Shown: positions 13,684-23,540, numbered from the stretch's first letter. The stretch is DNA of 32,000 nucleotides from Pseudoalteromonas tetraodonis (GCF_002310835.1 NZ_CP011041.1:2010001-2042000), one strand, 5' to 3'. A program made the numbers and translations. The notes: generated by a model from the sequence alone, not told the origin.

Positions 13684-14436
13684 TTAATCTTGATTTTTTG
13701 TCACTATAATTTGACGCTGTGCCATAGCTGTTAAGGTACTCAGTGCCCCTTGAGTTATTTGCTCAAGGCTAAATTGAGGTGCATTTTCACTGACTTGCTG
13801 GCAAACATGCGCAAATGTGCTTCCTGCGTTATTGTCAATAATAGACAAAAGCATGGCGGTCATCGCATTAGTTGCTAAAAATTGTACTTCATCGTCTTTA
13901 TCTCTGTACACCACAAAATAATGTGGCTGCTCAGAGGGCTGTTGCGGTTGAAACGCTTCGCTAATATGTTGTACGGGGAATTCATAGCTTAAGTTACGTG
14001 CCGTTTTAGATAAATATAAAGGGCTTTGGGTTAATTGATTCGTTACCAGTTCGCTCTCATCCAAGTCAGCCTGAGTTACCGATACATCAAGCTCAATCCA
14101 TTCATAATGCGCCAGCGCTAGCATAAACACAGGGTCGCACTCTTTGGGCACATAACTTGTCATTAAATACGTTATAAACTCTTCAGCAATATCTAAAAAG
14201 TAAGGCGACTGACAATCATGTTCACTAAAAAATTCACGAACACGTAACTGCCATTGTTGCTCAGTGTAAAGTGTTTTTAATACCGGAAATGCTGATGAAA
14301 CAAACCCATTGATGTTATTAAAAAAAAGCTCCCGATAAATAGCCATACGTCTGTCTTCAACATCTGCTGGGCAAGGGTTCGTTTTGGGCTGGCGAATATG
14401 AGCCATAAACTCATTTTGAATATCGATAAAACTCAT
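13684..14436 (-). CDS. DUF2063-family protein (partner/substrate-recruiting subunit of MNIO enzymes; HvfC/BufC-like)
   Basis: 250 aa. The N-terminal pattern IQNEFMAHIRQP…RRMAIYRELFFNNINGFVSSAFPVL is typical of DUF2063. It lies 54 nt downstream of a DUF692 gene, which is the canonical pairing. Confidence 0.8.
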   Translation of the reverse strand: MSFIDIQNEFMAHIRQPKTNPCPADVEDRRMAIYRELFFNNINGFVSSAFPVLKTLYTEQQWQLRVREFFSEHDCQSPYFLDIAEEFITYLMTSYVPKECDPVFMLALAHYEWIELDVSVTQADLDESELVTNQLTQSPLYLSKTARNLSYEFPVQHISEAFQPQQPSEQPHYFVVYRDKDDEVQFLATNAMTAMLLSIIDNNAGSTFAHVCQQVSENAPQFSLEQITQGALSTLTAMAQRQIIVTKNQD

Positions 14437-14490: not shown

Positions 14491-15348
14491 TTAAGCACTT
14501 TGCTCAGTGGATAACCGCTGCAGGTGCTTTGCTTGTAATTGATGAATTATATCCAGCTCTTTGGTTAACACGTTAATAGGTGGAATATTAAAGTCCCGCT
14601 CTAACAGCGTCGGAAATACACCATGTGTTTCATAAGCGCTATCGAGCAACTGCCATACGGGATCAATAACATCGGCGCCATGAGTATCTATAATCAAGTC
14701 CTCGGCTTCGTTGTAATGCCCTGCAACATGGGCATAAGCAATTCGGTTAGTTGGCAATGCAGCTAAAAAGGCATGTGCATCGTAGCCATGATTAACTGAA
14801 TTAACATAAATATTATTTACATCTAGTAGTAACTGGCAATCAGCCTGTTCTAAAATAGCGTTTGTAAATTCAAGCTCAGTTAACTGTTGTCCAGGCGCGC
14901 CATAATAAGACACATTTTCCAGCGCAAGTGGGCGTTCTAAAATATCTTGTACCTGTTTAACCCGAGAAACAACATGGTTAACCGCCTCCTCAGTGAAAGG
15001 GATCGGCATTAAGTCATACATGTGTCCTTTTCCTGAACAATAACTTAAATGCTCGCTGTATACTTTAATATTATGAGTATCAAAAAACGGTTTTAACGAC
15101 TTTACAAATTCAAGGTCTAATGGCTCAGGCGAGCCAATGGAAAGTGACAAACCATGGCAAACAAAATGATTAGTATTGGTTAACTGTTTGAACTGCTTTT
15201 CAAAGCGTCCACCTAACTTTAACCAGTTTTCTGGGGCCACTTCCATAAACTCAATTTGTTTTGGTACAGCACCGTCTAGCTCATCTAGCATTTCCCTGCG
15301 TAGGCCTAAGCCAACCATGCCAAAGTTAGGCGTTTGAATGTGAGCCAT
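14491..15348 (-). CDS. DUF692 / MNIO (multinuclear non-haem iron oxidase; MbnB/BufB/HvfB-like)
   Basis: 285 aa with family signature blocks in the usual order: VGLGLRRE, FMEVAPENW, CHGLSLSIG, YSEHLSY, ALENVSYY, LLLDVNNIYVN, AHVAGH, IIDTHG, LLERD. The His/Glu/Asp/Asn residues are consistent with the iron ligands of this TIM-barrel family. Confidence 0.9.
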   Translation of the reverse strand: MAHIQTPNFGMVGLGLRREMLDELDGAVPKQIEFMEVAPENWLKLGGRFEKQFKQLTNTNHFVCHGLSLSIGSPEPLDLEFVKSLKPFFDTHNIKVYSEHLSYCSGKGHMYDLMPIPFTEEAVNHVVSRVKQVQDILERPLALENVSYYGAPGQQLTELEFTNAILEQADCQLLLDVNNIYVNSVNHGYDAHAFLAALPTNRIAYAHVAGHYNEAEDLIIDTHGADVIDPVWQLLDSAYETHGVFPTLLERDFNIPPINVLTKELDIIHQLQAKHLQRLSTEQSA

Positions 15349-15363
15349 AATAAAACCTCATAT

Positions 15364-15389
15364 TAAATAAAAAGGGCCTAATAGGCCCT
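15364..15389 (-). terminator. Intrinsic terminator/attenuator between the precursor gene and the MNIO gene
   Basis: Minus strand reads AGGGCCT-att-AGGCCCT followed by TTTTATTTAATA. It starts 27 nt after the precursor stop and ends 15 nt before the MNIO ATG. Confidence 0.75.
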
Positions 15390-15416
15390 ATAGCTTAACG
15401 TATTTAAAAGAAAAGT

Positions 15417-15884
15417 TTAGTGACCACCGCATTTACCTTCGCCACATTTACCTTCTTTTTTGGTTTTAGCTTCACCGCATTTACCTTCGCCACACTTGCC
15501 TTCTTTTTTGGCCTTAGCTTCACCGCATTTACCTTCGCCGCACTTGCCTTCTTTTTTGGCTTTAGCTTCACCGCATTTACCTTCGCCGCACTTACCTTCT
15601 TTTTTGGCCTTAGCTTCACCGCATTTGCCTTCGCCGCACTTACCTTCTTTTTTGGCCTTCGCTTCGCCGCATTTACCTTCGCCGCACTTTCCTTCTTTTT
15701 TGGTTTTAGCTTCACCGCATTTACCTTCGCCGCACTTGCCTTCACCTGCGTCTAACTGGTAACCAGCAACCATTTGCTGAAATTCAAATGGGTTAGCTTG
15801 TACATCTGCACTGGCCATACTTGCACTACCAACAACCACTGCGCCGAGTGTTAATGCAATTGAATTTTTCTTTATTGTATTCAT
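15417..15884 (-). CDS. Secreted tandem-repeat cysteine protein (14 x GKCGE): predicted MNIO substrate/precursor (HvfA-like)
   Basis: 155 aa. AGAAGG Shine-Dalgarno 9 nt upstream of the ATG. Sec signal MNTIKKNSIALTLGAVVVGSASMASA|DV, then a unique segment NPFEFQQMVAGYQLDA, then (EGKCGEGKCGEAK[A/T]KK)x6 + EGKCGEGKCGGH. Differences between repeat units are almost all synonymous in this frame only. Confidence 0.85.
   Translation of the reverse strand: MNTIKKNSIALTLGAVVVGSASMASADVQANPFEFQQMVAGYQLDAGEGKCGEGKCGEAKTKKEGKCGEGKCGEAKAKKEGKCGEGKCGEAKAKKEGKCGEGKCGEAKAKKEGKCGEGKCGEAKAKKEGKCGEGKCGEAKTKKEGKCGEGKCGGH
15426..15745 (-). repeat. 48-bp tandem repeat, 6 complete units plus a partial seventh, inside the precursor CDS
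   Basis: Unit boundaries on the plus strand are 15426, 15474, 15522, 15570, 15618, 15666 and 15714. The unit consensus is ACCGCATTTACCTTCGCCGCACTTRCCTTCTTTTTTGGYYTTAGCTTC. No stop codons occur in 4 of the 6 frames. Confidence 0.95.
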
Positions 15885-15915
15885 TTTTTATTACCTTCTA
15901 AACTTGTTGAACATC

Positions 15916-15944
15916 ATTATACAAGTAGACCTGCATAAAACTAA
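15916..15944 (-). promoter_or_regulatory. Candidate sigma-70 promoter of the precursor/MNIO operon
   Basis: Minus strand has a perfect TATAAT (15921-15916) and a weak -35 TTAGTT (15944-15939) with a 17-nt spacer. It lies about 30 nt upstream of the precursor ATG. The dyad ACTTGT-N13-ACAAGT (15902-15926) overlaps the -10. Confidence 0.4.
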
Positions 15945-16072
15945 AAACTTTCACATTATCTATTTTTTCAAAAATAACTTAGTAAACTAACTATGAACCC
16001 TAATAAGCGTTTTATCAATTTATGATTTACAGGTAAACTGGCGCTCTTTTTCAGTAATAAATTAATCACACT

Positions 16073-17053
16073 ATGAAACTTGTTTTAGCACCTATGGAAG
16101 GTGTCGTTGACTTTAAAATGCGCCAACTACTCACCGACATAGGTGGCTTTGATCTTTGTGTGACTGAATTTATCCGCGTTGTAGATACTTGCTTGCCTGA
16201 TAAAGTATTCCATCGTTATTGCCCTGAACTAAAAAATGCAGGGCTAACTCGATGTGGCACGCCAGTTAGAATTCAGTTATTGGGCCAAGTGGCTGACGTC
16301 CTAGCTGAAAATGCAGTAAAAGCGGTTAGTTTGGGCTCTCATGGTGTTGACTTAAACTTTGGCTGCCCGGCAAAAACGGTGAATAAAAGCAAAGGGGGCG
16401 CTGTTTTACTCAAAGACCCTGAACATATGTATTCAATAATTAAAACTGTAAGGGATGCCGTAGACGCTGAACACGAGGTAAGTGCAAAAATTCGCTTAGG
16501 TTTTGATGATGATAGTAATAGCCAAGAGATTGTCGATGCCGTTGTCAGTGCAGGTGCGAGCAGTATCGCCATTCATGCGCGAACTAAACGCGATGGCTAT
16601 AACCCGCCTGCCTATTGGGAAAAAATCCCTCCTTTAGTTAAAGATAAACAAATTGCGGTGGTCGCCAATGGGGAGATTTGGCAGGTAGAAGATGCCCTTT
16701 TATGCCAAAAGCGCAGCGGTTGCACTGACTTAATGATTGGCCGTGGCGCCCTTTCACATCCTGATTTAGCTCGTAAAATTAAAGCTCATATTAATAATGA
16801 AGATTATAGTGAGTTAACGTGGGAAAATATTTTACACCATATTATTTACTCATCCATGCACCAAACCGCCAGTAAAGATACCAAGTACTTTGCCTCACGC
16901 ACAAAACAATGGCTTGGTTATTTAAAACGTCAGTACCCACAAGCAGGACTATTATTTGACGAAATACGTCGTTTAAAAGCCAAAGATGAAGTGGCAGAGG
17001 TATTAAAAAAATATGCGAAAGCGCCACAATTTGATACAAATCATAACATCTAA
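16073..17053 (+). CDS. dusC: tRNA-dihydrouridine(16) synthase DusC
   Basis: 326 aa. MKLVLAPMEGVVDFKMRQLLTD…DLCVTEFIRVV…VDLNFGCPAKTVNKSKGGAVLLKDPE… is colinear with E. coli DusC. Confidence 0.9.
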   Translation: MKLVLAPMEGVVDFKMRQLLTDIGGFDLCVTEFIRVVDTCLPDKVFHRYCPELKNAGLTRCGTPVRIQLLGQVADVLAENAVKAVSLGSHGVDLNFGCPAKTVNKSKGGAVLLKDPEHMYSIIKTVRDAVDAEHEVSAKIRLGFDDDSNSQEIVDAVVSAGASSIAIHARTKRDGYNPPAYWEKIPPLVKDKQIAVVANGEIWQVEDALLCQKRSGCTDLMIGRGALSHPDLARKIKAHINNEDYSELTWENILHHIIYSSMHQTASKDTKYFASRTKQWLGYLKRQYPQAGLLFDEIRRLKAKDEVAEVLKKYAKAPQFDTNHNI

Positions 17054-18558: not shown

Positions 18559-19818
18559 CTAAATTTTAACACCGTTGCGAGCGGCTTTATCTTTAATATA
18601 TGTAGCCCAACCTTTAGCAAACCTACGTGTGCTTGGGTCGTCCATGGCTTTAGTAATAGCAGCATAAGCTTGCTTATACTTACCTTGGTAGTAAAACGCT
18701 TCAGCTAAATCTGAATAAATAGTGCCTTTTTTATCAGAGCCAAGCTCTAATGCTTTGTTCAAACGAACAACAGCAGCGCTGAATTTTTCAGATTGTAAAA
18801 GTAATGAACCTGCTTTGCGGTAGAGCTCAGCGTCGTCATCAAATTTAGCAGCTTCTTCGTAATACTTAGCAGCTTTCTCTATATCTTTCGAACGATGGTA
18901 GTTACTAGCAATCGCGCTAATATTTTGCTTAGTGCGTTTTACTTTCTCTTCTTTAACAGCCTTTTCAAGCGTTACTGCTGCTTTGTAAGGAATTTCGTTT
19001 AAAGAATAAAAGTTAGCCAGTACTTTGTATTCAACTTCGTTTTCGAAGTAACCATTCTTGTATGCAACTTCCATAGTTGCTAGACCTTTTTGGTAGTCTT
19101 CGGTTTGTAAATAATACTTACCTAAACCTACCCAAGACTTTTTGTCTTCAGGCCATACACGAACAATTTCTTCTGCAACTTTAACCATATCTTGATATTG
19201 CTTTTTCTCAAAATAGGCAGCTAATTTAAGTTGATAAGGAGCTTTATTTGGCTCTTCAGCTAACTTAATTGCTTTATTTGCCGGTTCAAGAACCTGATCA
19301 AATTGTTTAAGCTCATAGCTTGCTTGCGCAATACGAGTGTAAACTTTCGGGTCCTCTTCACCTGTGAAGTCCATCCAATCAGAATATGCTTGCTTGGCAG
19401 CACTGTATTGTTCAGTACCCGCATACATATCGCCCAAAGTTTTTAAACCTTGAGCCTGATCAGCAAAGTTCAATACATCCGGTGCAATCGCTGCTTTCAT
19501 ATACTTAATTGCAACTTTGTATTGCTCTTTTTGAGCGTACATGCTGCCTAAGTAACGATTAACAGTTGCTTTATCAAAGTCATTAGACGGATCTAACTCT
19601 TTCAATAACGCTATTGCACCATCAACATCATCTTCGTTATACAAATCAAACGCTTTAATTACTTTTTTACCAGTACGTTCGCCCATGATTTTAGTTTTTG
19701 CTTTCTTACGCTCTTCAATTTTCGCGTAATCTGGCGCCGCTAAAACAGGTGCAGTTAATGATGCACCTGACACAGACATAAGAATTGCAAGTGCAGTTAC
19801 TTTAGAAAAATTTCTCAT
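18559..19818 (-). CDS. Periplasmic TPR-repeat protein (TtpD-like, TonB2 system)
   Basis: 419 aa with a signal peptide (…LTAPVLAA|PD). Repeated TPR-like A-x-Y/F helices run throughout. It is the last gene of the TonB2-type cluster. Confidence 0.75.
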   Translation of the reverse strand: MRNFSKVTALAILMSVSGASLTAPVLAAPDYAKIEERKKAKTKIMGERTGKKVIKAFDLYNEDDVDGAIALLKELDPSNDFDKATVNRYLGSMYAQKEQYKVAIKYMKAAIAPDVLNFADQAQGLKTLGDMYAGTEQYSAAKQAYSDWMDFTGEEDPKVYTRIAQASYELKQFDQVLEPANKAIKLAEEPNKAPYQLKLAAYFEKKQYQDMVKVAEEIVRVWPEDKKSWVGLGKYYLQTEDYQKGLATMEVAYKNGYFENEVEYKVLANFYSLNEIPYKAAVTLEKAVKEEKVKRTKQNISAIASNYHRSKDIEKAAKYYEEAAKFDDDAELYRKAGSLLLQSEKFSAAVVRLNKALELGSDKKGTIYSDLAEAFYYQGKYKQAYAAITKAMDDPSTRRFAKGWATYIKDKAARNGVKI

Positions 19819-19829
19819 TACTCGCCTCC

Positions 19830-20447
19830 TTAGTTGCCTTGGTTAAGTTTAAAGTCTAGTTGAACTTGTAAACCAACTTGCTTTTGTGGTTTCCCGTCAA
19901 TGATCTTAGGACGGTATTTCCACTTACGCAATGCACGTTTAGCTTCACGGTCAAAGATACGTTTTGGATCTGCGTCGATAACATCAACGTCAATCACGCC
20001 ACCTAACTCATCAATTGTGAACGAAAGTTGAACCCAACCTTCTTTACCATCACGTGCTGCTTGTGTTGGATATTTTGGTTCAATACGAACGATAGGTGTC
20101 GCATCACCATCTCGTCCAAATGCACCTGGACCACTTAGTCCACCGGCCGTGCTTCCCACATCGATACTTGGCATATTAAATGACAAGCCACCAGTATTTG
20201 GGTTGCTATTTTCCGGCTGTGGCGGCTGCGGTTTAGGCGGCTGCTTTGGCGGTGGCGGAGGCGGAGGCGGTACACGCTTCCTCTCCTGCACCTTAGATTC
20301 AGGCGGATTCGTCATAATTTCGACTATGATCTGCTCTTTTTGTTCCGTATTACGGTCAGCCCCACCAGAGATGAGGTATGCCATGAAGTAGAACAAGCCG
20401 AAAGTAACTGCCCCACCTGCAATCAGTGAAAACAGAAAACGAATCAT
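19830..20447 (-). CDS. tonB: Energy transducer TonB
   Basis: 205 aa with an N-terminal TM anchor, a Pro-rich spacer PPPPPPPPKQPPKPQPPQPE and a C-terminal TonB domain (…PKYPTQAARDGKEGWVQLSFTIDELGGV…). Its ATG overlaps the exbD stop by 1 nt. Confidence 0.9.
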   Translation of the reverse strand: MIRFLFSLIAGGAVTFGLFYFMAYLISGGADRNTEQKEQIIVEIMTNPPESKVQERKRVPPPPPPPPKQPPKPQPPQPENSNPNTGGLSFNMPSIDVGSTAGGLSGPGAFGRDGDATPIVRIEPKYPTQAARDGKEGWVQLSFTIDELGGVIDVDVIDADPKRIFDREAKRALRKWKYRPKIIDGKPQKQVGLQVQLDFKLNQGN

Positions 20448-20851
20448 TACTGATCTCCAGCTATTGAAATTCTCAGGTTATCACCCGTCGCTTTAATCTG
20501 GTCCATCACTTTAACCACTGTGCCGTGTTTTGCTTCTTTATCAGCTTGCAAAATTACAACATCAGTAGGTTGTTCTGCTAATAAACTTTCGATTTTTGCT
20601 GAAACACGTTCAACATCAACCTGCTGTTTATCAATCCAGATTGCACCGTCACTGCGAATTGCAATAAAAATGTTAGCATTTTTTTGCTTCGTAGCTTGGG
20701 CAGCTTTTGGTTTATTGACCTCGATACCAGCCTCTTTAACGAACGATGTAGTTACGATAAAGAAAATAAGCATGATAAATACGATGTCAAGCATTGGCGT
20801 CATATCTACCGCTGCTTCTTCTTCTTCACGAAAACGTTGTTTACGTGCCAT
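20447..20851 (-). CDS. exbD: Biopolymer transporter ExbD
   Basis: 134 aa. …VDMTPMLDIVFIMLIFFIVT… is the typical ExbD/TolR TM region carrying the conserved Asp. Confidence 0.9.
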   Translation of the reverse strand: MARKQRFREEEEAAVDMTPMLDIVFIMLIFFIVTTSFVKEAGIEVNKPKAAQATKQKNANIFIAIRSDGAIWIDKQQVDVERVSAKIESLLAEQPTDVVILQADKEAKHGTVVKVMDQIKATGDNLRISIAGDQ

Positions 20852-20865
20852 ATTTAATTCTCTCT

Positions 20866-21390
20866 CTAGTGATGAGGCATACTATCTACAAGCTTGGCTT
20901 TCACCATTCTCGCTCTTGCCTCAAGGCGTGAGCTAAAGAATACCCCAGATAGTGCCGCAACCATTCCAGCCATTGTTGGGATTGTTGCCATTGATATGCC
21001 TGATGCCATTAAACGTGCATTACCTGTACCTTGGGTTGCCATGGTTTCAAAAACCGCGATCATACCCGTAACAGTACCAAGTAAGCCTATTAAAGGACAT
21101 ATAGCTACTAATGTTTTAATCAACAACATACGCTGATCTAATTTTTCAGACGCTTCAGAAATCCATGCTTCACGGATTCTGTGTGCGTACCAAGACGTAG
21201 TGTCTTGGCGGGCATCCCACTTAGCTACAATTTCCTTCGTTAAAAGAGGAAACTCAGCAAGTAAGAACCAATAGCGCTCAATCATTAAAACCCACATAAG
21301 AAAGAGTGCTATCGCGACCACGTATAAAACCTGGCCGCCTGTGCCAACAAAATCCCTGATAGATTCCCAGATCTCCATCAGGACTAGCAT
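20866..21390 (-). CDS. exbB: MotA/TolQ/ExbB proton-channel protein (ExbB)
   Basis: 174 aa with three TM segments and the conserved block …LIGLLGTVTGMI..F… . Its ATG overlaps the upstream stop (TAATG). Confidence 0.88.
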   Translation of the reverse strand: MLVLMEIWESIRDFVGTGGQVLYVVAIALFLMWVLMIERYWFLLAEFPLLTKEIVAKWDARQDTTSWYAHRIREAWISEASEKLDQRMLLIKTLVAICPLIGLLGTVTGMIAVFETMATQGTGNARLMASGISMATIPTMAGMVAALSGVFFSSRLEARARMVKAKLVDSMPHH

Positions 21391-22754
21391 TAGGCTTTCT
21401 CCTTCTCCGCGTGAGTCGCGATGATACCCGCGCTTTGCTCATCAAGGATATGTAGTACCGACTTACTACGACCTGCAACAATTGAATGAAGTAGGATAAG
21501 TGGTAGTGCTGCAATTAGACCTAGCGCTGTAGTTACAAGTGCTAGAGAGATGTTACCAGCCATGATCTTCGGATCGCCCGTACCGAACAATGTGATTGTT
21601 TGGAACGTTAGGATCATACCGATTACCGTACCTAGTAGACCTAGTAATGGTGCGATAGCAGCAAGGATCTTGATGATGTTAATACCCGCTTCGATGCGTG
21701 GCGTTTCACGTAGAATCGCTTCATCAAGTTTAAGCTCAAGGTTTTCAACATCTTGATTTTTGTTGTCAGAGTACACTTTAAGAATACGACCCAATGGGTT
21801 GTTTGTATTCGGTGTAGACAAGTTCTTAAGCTGAGCTTTGATCTTAGAAGTAGTAAGCGCTAAATCAACGAAACGTACTAAGAAGATTAAAAGACCTACA
21901 GCAAGCAATACGGTGATGATGTAACCAACTTCAGCACCTTGCTCGTAGTACTCCATAAGAGACTTCTTCTGCGTGTTGATACGTAAGATTGCACCACGTG
22001 TAGGATCCACGTATACGCCAGCGTAATTATCAGCTGAAGTACCTTCTAGATCAGAAATACCTTTTAAGATATAGCTGTCAGGTTGCTTACCTAGAGGCTG
22101 TATAGACTTAGTCTCTGGTGAGTAGATTAAGTAGCCATCGTCTGTAACTAAGTTGAAGTTACCGATACGTGTTACTTTTTTCATTGACGGGTTACCGTCA
22201 AGACCTGCAACTTCAGTTTCAAACGTTGAAACTTTAGCTGACTCAGTCATTTCTGTTTGAAGTGAAATCCAAAGTTCTTCTAACTCACGAACTGTTGGAA
22301 GTTCTTTAGCCGCAGCTAATGAACGAAGTACTTCAGCACGTCCTGGTTTTTCAGCACTTACTAAAGATGCTTCAATTGAACCAATCGCGTCAGCTGCTGC
22401 ACGACGAACAACACCAAACATTTCACCTAACGTACCTTGCGCGTTTTGAAGAGCTTGCTCTTTTTCCGCTAAAGTATTTTCGTTTTGTGCATATTCTTTG
22501 CTAAGACGATCACCACGTGCTTTTTCAGCAGCTAATTGGCTTTTCGCTTTGTTAAGTAACGCTTGCTTATCAGCACGATCTGATAAGAACTCTTGTTCAC
22601 GTTGCTTATTGATTTTCCCTTCAGAAATACGCTCTTGCTTTACTTGCTCAAGAATTTTATCTAAAGCATCAGTATTTGCATGTGCATTAAGCGCGGTACC
22701 GGCAGAAACAGACAGTACTGCTGCAACAGCAAAACCTTTAAATAGTTTCTTCAT
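21390..22754 (-). CDS. Large MotA/TolQ/ExbB-family protein with an N-terminal periplasmic coiled-coil domain (TtpC-like)
   Basis: 454 aa with a signal peptide and a long coiled-coil/periplasmic region. The C-terminal ExbB-like channel block reads …APLLGLLGTVIGMILTFQ… . Confidence 0.85.
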   Translation of the reverse strand: MKKLFKGFAVAAVLSVSAGTALNAHANTDALDKILEQVKQERISEGKINKQREQEFLSDRADKQALLNKAKSQLAAEKARGDRLSKEYAQNENTLAEKEQALQNAQGTLGEMFGVVRRAAADAIGSIEASLVSAEKPGRAEVLRSLAAAKELPTVRELEELWISLQTEMTESAKVSTFETEVAGLDGNPSMKKVTRIGNFNLVTDDGYLIYSPETKSIQPLGKQPDSYILKGISDLEGTSADNYAGVYVDPTRGAILRINTQKKSLMEYYEQGAEVGYIITVLLAVGLLIFLVRFVDLALTTSKIKAQLKNLSTPNTNNPLGRILKVYSDNKNQDVENLELKLDEAILRETPRIEAGINIIKILAAIAPLLGLLGTVIGMILTFQTITLFGTGDPKIMAGNISLALVTTALGLIAALPLILLHSIVAGRSKSVLHILDEQSAGIIATHAEKEKA

Positions 22755-22760
22755 TATTGA

Positions 22761-23540
22761 TTACTCCGCGCCAAAAATTGGTAGTTTAACAAGTTCTAGT
22801 GTGGCTTGCTTACGCGCCATACGGATCACTTCTTTAACAGGTTTTAGGTATTCTTCACCTAATTCTTTCCACTGTTTAGTGTTGTTATCCCACACCCAAG
22901 CGTGTTTTAGATCGAATGATTGCGCTACATAAGTGATACGACCTAAACGACCGATATCAACGTTAATGCTACGACCATCAACATCTAAAGTACCTTGAGA
23001 AGCAGTTACAGCTGAACTGTATGCTGTTTCAACAGTGTACGCTTCAAGTACCTGACGGAACTTCTCAGACGTTGTTACAGATGCAGATGCCATGATCTCA
23101 CGTAATCTTTCAACACGTCCAAGACGAGTTTCAAGGTTAAATGGAACGTCCGCTTTGATGAATTGCTCAAGCGTATCGATCATGCGATACATCAAAGGCA
23201 CAACGTTTTGTTTAGTGTTATCGATAGTCGCGATTTGACGATCGAACGATGCGATAGACGCATTTTGGTCAGCGACCAAACGTGCTACGTGATCGTTGTA
23301 CACTTTCATAAGTTCAGTCTCATCAACGATGCTACGGTACTCAGCGATTAGCTCCTGAGTTTGACCATATACATTGTCAATTTTAGTTTGAGACTTAACC
23401 GCAGCCTTTTGAATTGTTTGACCTGCTTTTTGCACGTCATTCAAAGGATCTGCAATCACATTGCTGCTTGCAAATGCAAAAGCGCCAACCAACGCAGTTG
23501 CTACAAGACTCTTTCTGATTTTAACAGACATAGTTCCCAA
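22761..23540 (-). CDS. DUF3450-like periplasmic coiled-coil protein (TtpB-like)
   Basis: 259 aa from the TTG start at 23540. ATG at 23531 (MSVKIRK…) is the more likely start. It has a signal peptide …AFAFASSNVIA|DP and is the first gene of the TonB2-type cluster. Confidence 0.75.
   Translation of the reverse strand: MGTMSVKIRKSLVATALVGAFAFASSNVIADPLNDVQKAGQTIQKAAVKSQTKIDNVYGQTQELIAEYRSIVDETELMKVYNDHVARLVADQNASIASFDRQIATIDNTKQNVVPLMYRMIDTLEQFIKADVPFNLETRLGRVERLREIMASASVTTSEKFRQVLEAYTVETAYSSAVTASQGTLDVDGRSINVDIGRLGRITYVAQSFDLKHAWVWDNNTKQWKELGEEYLKPVKEVIRMARKQATLELVKLPIFGAE

Follow-up and report, generated by a model that had tools for sequence, protein, structure and literature searches.

A repeat-built hvfA gene in a probable oxazolin-type metallophore operon of the Pseudoalteromonas tetraodonis group

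Genes and repeat array at the locus

The DNA stretch analysed here (the window; 32,000 nucleotides, NZ_CP011041.1:2010001-2042000 of assembly GCF_002310835.1) contains, at 15417-15884 on the minus strand, an ATG-initiated open reading frame (ORF) for a 155-aa protein that encloses a 48-bp tandem repeat. The window very probably represents a Pseudoalteromonas tetraodonis-group chromosome in which this ORF is hvfA, the precursor gene of an hvfABC operon for an oxazolin-type (“captophorin”) metallophore, i.e. a peptide made on the ribosome and modified after translation (RiPP). The features of the locus are compiled in Table 1, with positions counted from the first letter of the window.

Table 1. 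Genes, precursor segments and candidate regulatory elements of the hvf locus (MNIO, multinuclear non-haem iron oxidase; RRE, RiPP recognition element; TRF, Tandem Repeats Finder; ECF, extracytoplasmic function)
Feature	Position	Strand	Description	Basis
hvfC	13684..14436	-	DUF2063/NGO1945_C partner protein, RRE-containing	NCBIfam, Pfam, PDB
hvfB	14491..15348	-	MNIO (DUF692), iron-dependent oxidase, Cys to 5-thiooxazole by homology	Pfam, NCBIfam, PDB
Terminator-like hairpin	15363..15389	-	AGGGCCT-ATT-AGGCCCT, then TTTTATTT; between hvfA stop and hvfB start	scan, fold
hvfA	15417..15884	-	155-aa precursor of a RiPP metallophore of the HvfA/oxazolin (Buf_EGKCG, “captophorin”) type, 14 EGKCG motifs	ORF, NCBIfam
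Core array	15426..15743	-	six 48-bp units (EGKCGEGKCGEAKxKK) and a partial seventh (EGKCGEGKCG); 318 bp	TRF, unit parsing, dN/dS
Post-signal leader	15744..15806	-	residues 27-47, NPF-x8-GY motif; candidate HvfC (RRE) docking segment	orthologue conservation
Predicted Sec signal peptide	15807..15884	-	residues 1-26 (MNTIKKNSIALTLGAVVVGSASMASA / DVQ)	rule-based check
Candidate ECF-sigma (RpoE2/SigE-type) promoter	15926..15952	-	bipartite motif GAAAGTTTT-N12-GGTCTA, 68 nt upstream of hvfA ATG	
Sigma-70-like promoter	15990..16018	-	TTGATA-17-CATAGT	consensus match, conserved among Pseudoalteromonas species (upstream alignment)
Palindrome	16026..16037	hvfA-dusC intergenic	perfect 5-2-5 palindrome TTTACAGGTAAA (TTTACCTGTAAA on hvfA strand)	conserved among Pseudoalteromonas

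A single array was reported by TRF, at 15425-15743, with a period of 48, 6.6 copies, 93% matches, no indels and a score of 533. In the coding register it consists of six full units EGKCGEGKCGEAK(A/T)KK (15743..15456), followed by a partial seventh unit EGKCGEGKCG (15455..15426) and then by GGH and the stop codon, and the 14 EGKCG motifs of the ORF form seven pairs. If the units are read with EAKxKK first, the six units occupy 15426-15713, which is how a preliminary description of the window had placed them. The units are pairwise distinguishable by 1-6 substitutions, and the longest exact internal repeat of the array is 41 nt. Eight columns vary between units, seven of them at codon position 3, where only synonyms for Gly (GGC/GGT/GGA), Lys (AAG/AAA), Cys (TGC/TGT) and Ala (GCT/GCG) are exchanged, and one at codon position 1, where ACC/GCC results in Thr or Ala in the first and last spacers; the binomial probability of finding at least seven of eight at one given position is 0.0026. 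The description of the differences as almost purely synonymous, with an Ala/Thr exchange as the sole amino-acid change, is therefore accurate, and the same holds for the extreme composition noted for the region after the leader, as the 108 core residues are 32 Lys, 29 Gly, 20 Glu, 14 Cys, 10 Ala, 2 Thr and 1 His.

The ORF matches the NCBIfam model NF050137 (KCGExKCG_twice, HvfA family) in six stretches (E=7.4e-44, 147 bits, cutoff 19.5) and passes the HvfA equivalog model NF050188 marginally (95.9 bits, cutoff 95). The only Pfam match of the precursor is a spurious low-complexity hit to Fibrinogen_BP (13.8 bits, cutoff 50). More than 5500 homologues were found in a protein search; NCBI uses the name HvfA for several of them, and many of the rest are entered as “low-complexity protein”. 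The predicted signal peptide has a KK n-region, a hydrophobic core at residues 8-19 with a Kyte-Doolittle 11-mer maximum of 2.44, and A-S-A at positions -3 to -1 (residues 24-26), and was judged by these three rules. When 21 orthologues of many genera were aligned, the leader that follows showed no variation at F33 and Y42 and at least 90% conservation at P32 and G41. In analogy to published data on HvfC and its RRE, the leader is a candidate for docking to HvfC.

Downstream of hvfA, the genes hvfB and hvfC follow in this order on the minus strand. The hvfB product matches PF05114 (MbnB_TglH_ChrH; E=3e-105), the HvfB family model NF003818 (441.8 bits, cutoff 360) and PDB entry 3bww (E=2.5e-75), and is identical to ATD03465.1 of P. 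tetraodonis GFC. The hvfC product matches the HvfC model NF050145 (304 bits, cutoff 142), PF09836, PF22106 and PDB entry 3dee (E=1.9e-8). Exactly these HvfB and HvfC proteins are found in P. tetraodonis GFC and relatives. With the HvfA-family matches and the two maturation genes that follow, the locus agrees with the idea of the preliminary description that the ORF is a repeat-built precursor with enzyme-modified Cys, whereby the chemistry would be that of homologues. A DoxX-encoding gene (hvfX) is present neither in the operon nor among the 18 window ORFs scanned with Pfam, which are a subset of the window ORFs.

The arrangement of hvfA and hvfB is conserved across genera. In 80 genome loci fetched through HvfB, an ORF with signal peptide, NPF-x8-GY motif and EGKCG repeats lies upstream of hvfB in about 66, and the Cys number ranges from 2 to 24. 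The operon is flanked by housekeeping genes, with apt, dnaX, ybaB and recR downstream and the divergently oriented dusC upstream. Farther away, about 3 kb from the hvf operon, the minus strand at 18559-23540 encodes a TPR protein, TonB (TonB_C), ExbD, two MotA/ExbB-family proteins and a DUF3450 protein, a cluster that resembles TonB2-type energy-transduction systems; no evidence was found that links this cluster to the metallophore.

Unit turnover, assembly of the array and the coding frame

The 48-bp DNA repeat is the encoding of a multi-site core and evolves through gain, loss and conversion of units. Such events between related strains are supported by the sequences of contigs that encode an HvfC identical to that of the window and carry hvfA alleles of differing length (L086-L091). 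In two NCBI assemblies (L090, L091), HvfA has 158 aa and seven units, namely three 17-aa units with GGDAKAKK, three 16-aa units with GEAKxKK and a partial last unit, while hvfBC differs from that of the window by 10-11 mismatches in 1665 nt. Two JGI contigs (L088, L089) encode a 128-aa HvfA with five units, all of 17 aa. Two Logan short-read assemblies encode still shorter proteins, one with 75 aa and two units that correspond to window unit 1 and the tail (L086), the other with 108 aa and four units that correspond to units 1, 5 and 6 of L090 and the tail (L087); both arrays correspond exactly to a part of a 7-unit array and are therefore collapses. A metagenome scan with the junction of leader and first unit found a single contig, the independent L096, and a scan with window unit 2 as exact 48-mer gave no matches. 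L096 encodes a 139-aa HvfA with six units that are collinear with the window allele unit by unit, with 0-1 mismatch each (W1, W2, W4, W5, W6 and the tail), and lacks only W3. The number of units thus varies among related alleles (seven, six or five), as the preliminary description had expected, and the closest reliable assemblies have seven in each case. Both spacer types coexist in the species group, with all units of the window allele being of the 16-aa type, all units of L088 of the 17-aa type, and those of L090/L091 half and half, which suggests conversion or homogenisation within arrays.

The surroundings of the array are also mosaic. Along about 7.7 kb, the window diverges from L090/L091 by only 0-0.5%, apart from a segment at ~15230-17020 (dusC, hvfA and the 5' end of hvfB) in which the divergence is 12-15% for dusC and moderate for hvfA and the beginning of hvfB. 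In comparison to L088, hvfB alone is divergent (94 mismatches), and hvfC is identical. These sequence comparisons suggest a hotspot for homologous exchange at this locus.

Could the seven double motifs of the window be an assembly artefact, with a true array that is longer or shorter? The region is indeed prone to such errors, as had been predicted for short-read assemblies. Apart from the internal repeats, which are exact over up to 41 nt, and the collapsed 2- and 4-unit arrays in Logan assemblies of near-identical strains, contigs end within ~400 nt upstream of hvfB in 12 of the 80 genome loci, in 8 cases inside the EGKCG array, and for 9 of 15 Logan loci the end lies in the array or at it (contigs ending in or at the array include L081-L085 and L092-L095 as well as L002, L003, L011, L019, L021, L030, L060 and L078). 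The exact 155-aa protein is also missing from a collection of 15 billion proteins that does contain both HvfB and HvfC, which is compatible with a rare allele, with a gene that was not called, or with both, and two database proteins, P0126 and P0043, are frameshifted or garbled and enter the open +1 frame after an A-run. However, every window unit can be told apart from the others by its substitutions, an independent contig is collinear unit for unit with one unit fewer, and the two NCBI assemblies of close relatives have seven units as well. We therefore regard a wrong unit count as unlikely, and since a collapse shortens and never lengthens an array, seven would be a lower bound at worst. 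For draft genomes in general, this means that the gene is easily missed or mis-assembled and that the counts of modifiable Cys are unreliable. A different doubt concerns the nature of the product, which could be a secreted, unmodified Cys/Lys-rich low-complexity protein with a metal-binding or structural role, similar to metallothioneins or copper storage proteins, next to hvfBC genes that are non-functional here. Many databases indeed list homologues as uncharacterized low-complexity proteins, an AlphaFold2 (AF2) β-helix model of Antoine et al. resembles copper storage proteins (PMC12452194), and some precursor genes have no adjacent MNIO gene (PMC12452194). Against this stand the intact, high-scoring hvfB and hvfC genes directly after the precursor gene on the same strand, the retention of the precursor-hvfB arrangement across genera, the modification of EGKCG Cys in every tested homologue when the B and C proteins are present, and the fact that precursors without MNIO and partner genes occur in very few genomes (PMC12452194). 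An unmodified product is thus quite improbable, even more so than a wrong unit count.

The third question is whether another open frame is the real gene or overlaps with it. As noted previously, four frames are stop-free through the array in the window: the EGKCG frame, the KASAAKVNA frame (+1 on the same strand), and the FTFA... and PHLPS... frames on the opposite strand. Between-unit dN/dS ratios were calculated for each frame (Nei-Gojobori). The EGKCG frame has the lowest value, 0.039, and is open in all 39 complete orthologues, so that there is no case in which it is interrupted while another frame is conserved. The ratio is ~1.5 for the same-strand +1 frame, which is open in 23 and interrupted in 16 of the 39 orthologues, and likewise ~1.5 for the antisense in-phase frame. 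For the antisense PHLPS frame, a low value of 0.19 was obtained, with 24 of 42 pairwise codon differences being synonymous. The preliminary claim that the same changes would be non-synonymous in all other frames thus applies to two of the three and fails for PHLPS. The reason for this low value is that the third positions of the PHLPS frame coincide with those of the gene, and the frame test alone would therefore not exclude PHLPS; more generally, a low dN/dS between the copies of a repeat does not on its own reveal the coding frame, since an antisense frame with third positions in common with the gene shows the same signature. The two antisense frames are open in 38 and 37 of the 39 orthologues, which can be explained by the absence of Leu, Ser, Tyr, His and Gln codons from the core, as the reverse complements of such codons would yield antisense stops. 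The extra open frames are hence a by-product of composition without coding significance. They have no family match, no conserved N-terminus and no conserved start. For the EGKCG frame, signal peptide and NPF..GY leader are conserved, the match to the family models is strong, and homologues have been characterized experimentally. On the basis of frame openness in orthologues, dN/dS and the comparison of units, we rejected alternative-frame coding, for which we see a negligible chance, and the EGKCG frame is under purifying selection, in line with the preliminary assignment. With a between-unit dS of 0.36, the units are also not a very recent slippage product, as had been proposed.

Proposed maturation, copper binding and control

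The gene identities, the operon order, the purifying selection on the EGKCG frame and the conservation of the leader are established by the analyses described above, and the following pathway is proposed in analogy to characterized systems. The 155-aa product would be composed of a Sec signal peptide (residues ~1-26), a short NPF..GY leader and the 108-residue core, in which EAK(A/T)KK spacers separate seven EGKCGEGKCG double motifs. In the cytoplasm, HvfC (DUF2063, RRE) would hold the precursor and activate the multinuclear non-haem iron oxidase HvfB, which would turn all 14 Cys into 5-thiooxazoles by four-electron oxidation, with a loss of 4 Da per residue. The product would then be exported by Sec, with removal of the signal peptide. 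As the window product is predicted to carry 14 thiooxazoles, pairs of these may bind Cu(I) at nominally seven sites in the periplasm or outside the cell (~7 Cu per molecule), and the exported peptide may thereby act as copper buffer or sequestrant. For the chemistry, the copper binding and the joint need for HvfB and HvfC, this pathway relies on published work on homologues.

In nontypeable Haemophilus influenzae, HvfA comprises 95 aa, with three AEGKCGEGKCG motifs and a signal peptide of 24 residues, which is removed in Escherichia coli (PMC11252979). Its motif Cys acquire six -4 Da modifications solely with both HvfB and HvfC, partially modified intermediates are also observed, and about one Cu(I) is bound per modified Cys pair (PMC11252979). 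HvfB is a mixed-valent diiron enzyme that attains this state only with HvfC. The modification was first called oxazolone/thioamide, and two groups reassigned it to 5-thiooxazole in 2026 reports; the class was named captophorins. In homologues, the thiooxazole-bearing products absorb at about 302-305 nm. As the modification is now assigned as 5-thiooxazole, the product name “oxazolone/thioamide-modified” of NF050137 and NF050188 is chemically outdated. With FonBC, the minimal substrate is a double EGKCG repeat, in which the Cys is essential and only a small residue may follow it; Pro is not accepted, and the remaining positions are mostly permissive. By analogy, this substrate mapping is the experimental counterpart to the idea, raised in the preliminary description, that the charged surroundings of each Cys constitute a repeated recognition frame.

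Two elements suggest how expression of the operon may be controlled. Between hvfA and hvfB, a 7-bp G+C-rich hairpin (15389..15373; fold -16.4 kcal/mol) precedes a T-run, and 28 of 39 orthologous loci have this combination at the corresponding position, compared to 1.8 +/- 1.4 in shuffles, while hvfB has its own ribosome-binding site GAGG, 7 nt 5' of its ATG. We propose from the sequence that the hairpin is a partial terminator that would attenuate read-through, so that the precursor could outnumber the enzymes. An excess of precursor over enzymes by means of a partial terminator is a common arrangement in RiPP operons. Upstream of hvfA, the bipartite motif GAAAGTTTT-N12-GGTCTA is the single match in the 32-kb window, and the motif is found there in 44 of 57 loci, compared to 1.06 +/- 1.0 in shuffles (Pseudoalteromonas 14/15, Shewanella 13/19, Rheinheimera 8/9, plus further loci in Alteromonadales and in some gammaproteobacteria outside this order). 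In geometry and -10 half, it agrees with the Neisseria σE consensus GTMAGBWTT-N12-13-CGTCTAAH, derived upstream of NMB2140, with which the σE-controlled operon NMB2140-NMB2145 begins. This operon contains a gene cluster for a DoxX-family protein and three hypothetical proteins; the H. influenzae counterpart of this cluster is the hvf cluster, of which all four genes are RpoE2-dependent and induced by hypochlorous acid. The GGTCTA motif is therefore a candidate ECF-sigma-type promoter, and transcription of the operon might start there, as in Neisseria and Haemophilus, whose homologous operon is RpoE2/SigE-dependent and responds to oxidants.

Further upstream, the palindrome TTTACCTGTAAA lies just before the sigma-70-like TTGATA-17-CATAGT, and may be the operator of a regulator. 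An Rfam scan of 15300-16100 gave nothing credible, the best match being an aspC motif with 23 bits (gathering score 100, E=0.54).

Several points weigh against the assignment as an oxazolin-type metallophore operon. Modification, export and copper binding in this host are all extrapolated from homologues, the signal peptide is predicted by rules only, and the HvfA equivalog score is barely above its cutoff. The precursor has no N-terminal Cys pair, which in H. influenzae (C38/C43) aids processing, and the operon has no DoxX gene hvfX; clusters with and without DoxX have both been described, DoxX being frequent and not universal (PMC12452194), and its lack is therefore not disqualifying. AF2 predicted no confident structure for HvfA from a 30-sequence alignment (mean predicted local distance difference test score 44, predicted template modelling score 0.11), and the essentially disordered model, in which a low-confidence helix at residues 31-39 is the sole secondary-structure element, did not reproduce the published β-helix model. 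The Cu stoichiometry may be stochastic and accompanied by aggregation, rather than one per pair. Terminator and ECF promoter are read from the sequence, the -35 half is GAAAK instead of the Neisseria GTAAG, and there is no ECF sigma gene in the window. Finally, the physiological role of such peptides is disputed in the literature, with detoxification, acquisition and oxidative-stress defence being discussed.

What could the repeat turnover and the conserved flanking elements mean together? A tentative idea, which we consider to be possible and rather doubtful, is that the hvfA arrays of Alteromonadales are rapidly evolving, recombination-driven “capacity dials”, in which number and type of units turn over from strain to strain in front of identical maturases, with the operon being wired via a GAAAK-N~17-GGTCTA promoter and an attenuating terminator. 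If this were true, the peptides would be tied to an oxidant/thiol-stress regulon sensed by zinc-binding anti-sigma (ZAS) factors, not to a copper sensor, and this tie would span free-living marine bacteria as well as Neisseria and Haemophilus. The promoter-like and terminator-like cis elements have possibly not been described so far and, being conserved, are leads on operon control outside pathogens.

Comparison with known systems

Methanobactin (MbnA/MbnB/MbnC) shares the principle that an MNIO and a partner protein oxidize Cys of a ribosomal peptide to a copper-binding heterocycle. It differs in its oxazolone/thioamide chemistry, in its short, leader-cleaved precursor without Sec signal, and in its partner MbnC, which is not a DUF2063 protein. 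Membership was rejected, as the window HvfB reaches only 37.6 bits with the MbnB model TIGR04159 (cutoff 325) and the precursor is unrelated and has a Sec signal. Bufferins (Buf1 DUF2282, Buf2 6/12Cys) are a sister group of which the window system is not a member: the MNIO_BufB score of 266 bits is below the cutoff of 310, and there is no DUF2282 Pfam match.

Bulbicupramide (mmrABC, Microbulbifer) and the captophorins fontiphorin and gonophorin (PMC12538549, PMC13097082) have the 5-thiooxazole chemistry and the copper binding in common with the system proposed here, and mmr is likewise a three-gene A-B-C cluster without DoxX. The precursors of all three have fewer motifs and differ in spacers and leaders. 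In Microbulbifer strains, the number of EGKCG units varies, with 5-8 Cys. The Buf_EGKCG/oxazolin family (Antoine et al. 2025, PMC12452194) has been surveyed with ~2000 proteins, Pseudoalteromonas members included, which range from 31 to 506 aa and differ in repeat number. The members from P. byunsanensis and P. piscicida belong to the same genus and have the same architecture, but their units comprise 17 residues (GGDAKxKK), whereas those of the window comprise 16 (GEAKxKK).

The type system is oxazolin (HvfA/HvfB/HvfC/HvfX) of nontypeable H. influenzae (Manley et al. 2024, PMC11252979, with a revision of the structure in 2026). Both systems have a precursor with Sec signal and repeated EGKCGEGKCG, and adjacent genes for the MNIO HvfB and the DUF2063/RRE partner HvfC, and the NCBIfam models for HvfA, HvfB and HvfC are all above their cutoffs here. 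The window precursor, however, is larger, with seven double motifs (14 Cys) in 155 aa, compared to three (6 Cys) in 95 aa in H. influenzae. It lacks the N-terminal disulfide Cys pair, and its regular 6-residue EAKxKK spacers result in a near-perfect 48-bp DNA repeat. DoxX/hvfX is lacking in the operon and among the scanned window ORFs, and the host is a free-living marine bacterium, not a pathogen. As the family is already biochemically characterized, has been surveyed including Pseudoalteromonas and is named in NCBIfam, the discovery value of the locus is small. The precursor gene with its two maturation enzymes is a system of the already known HvfA/oxazolin type, and its differences from the type system, i.e. 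seven instead of three double motifs, the 16-aa unit and the absence of disulfide pair and DoxX, are matters of degree.

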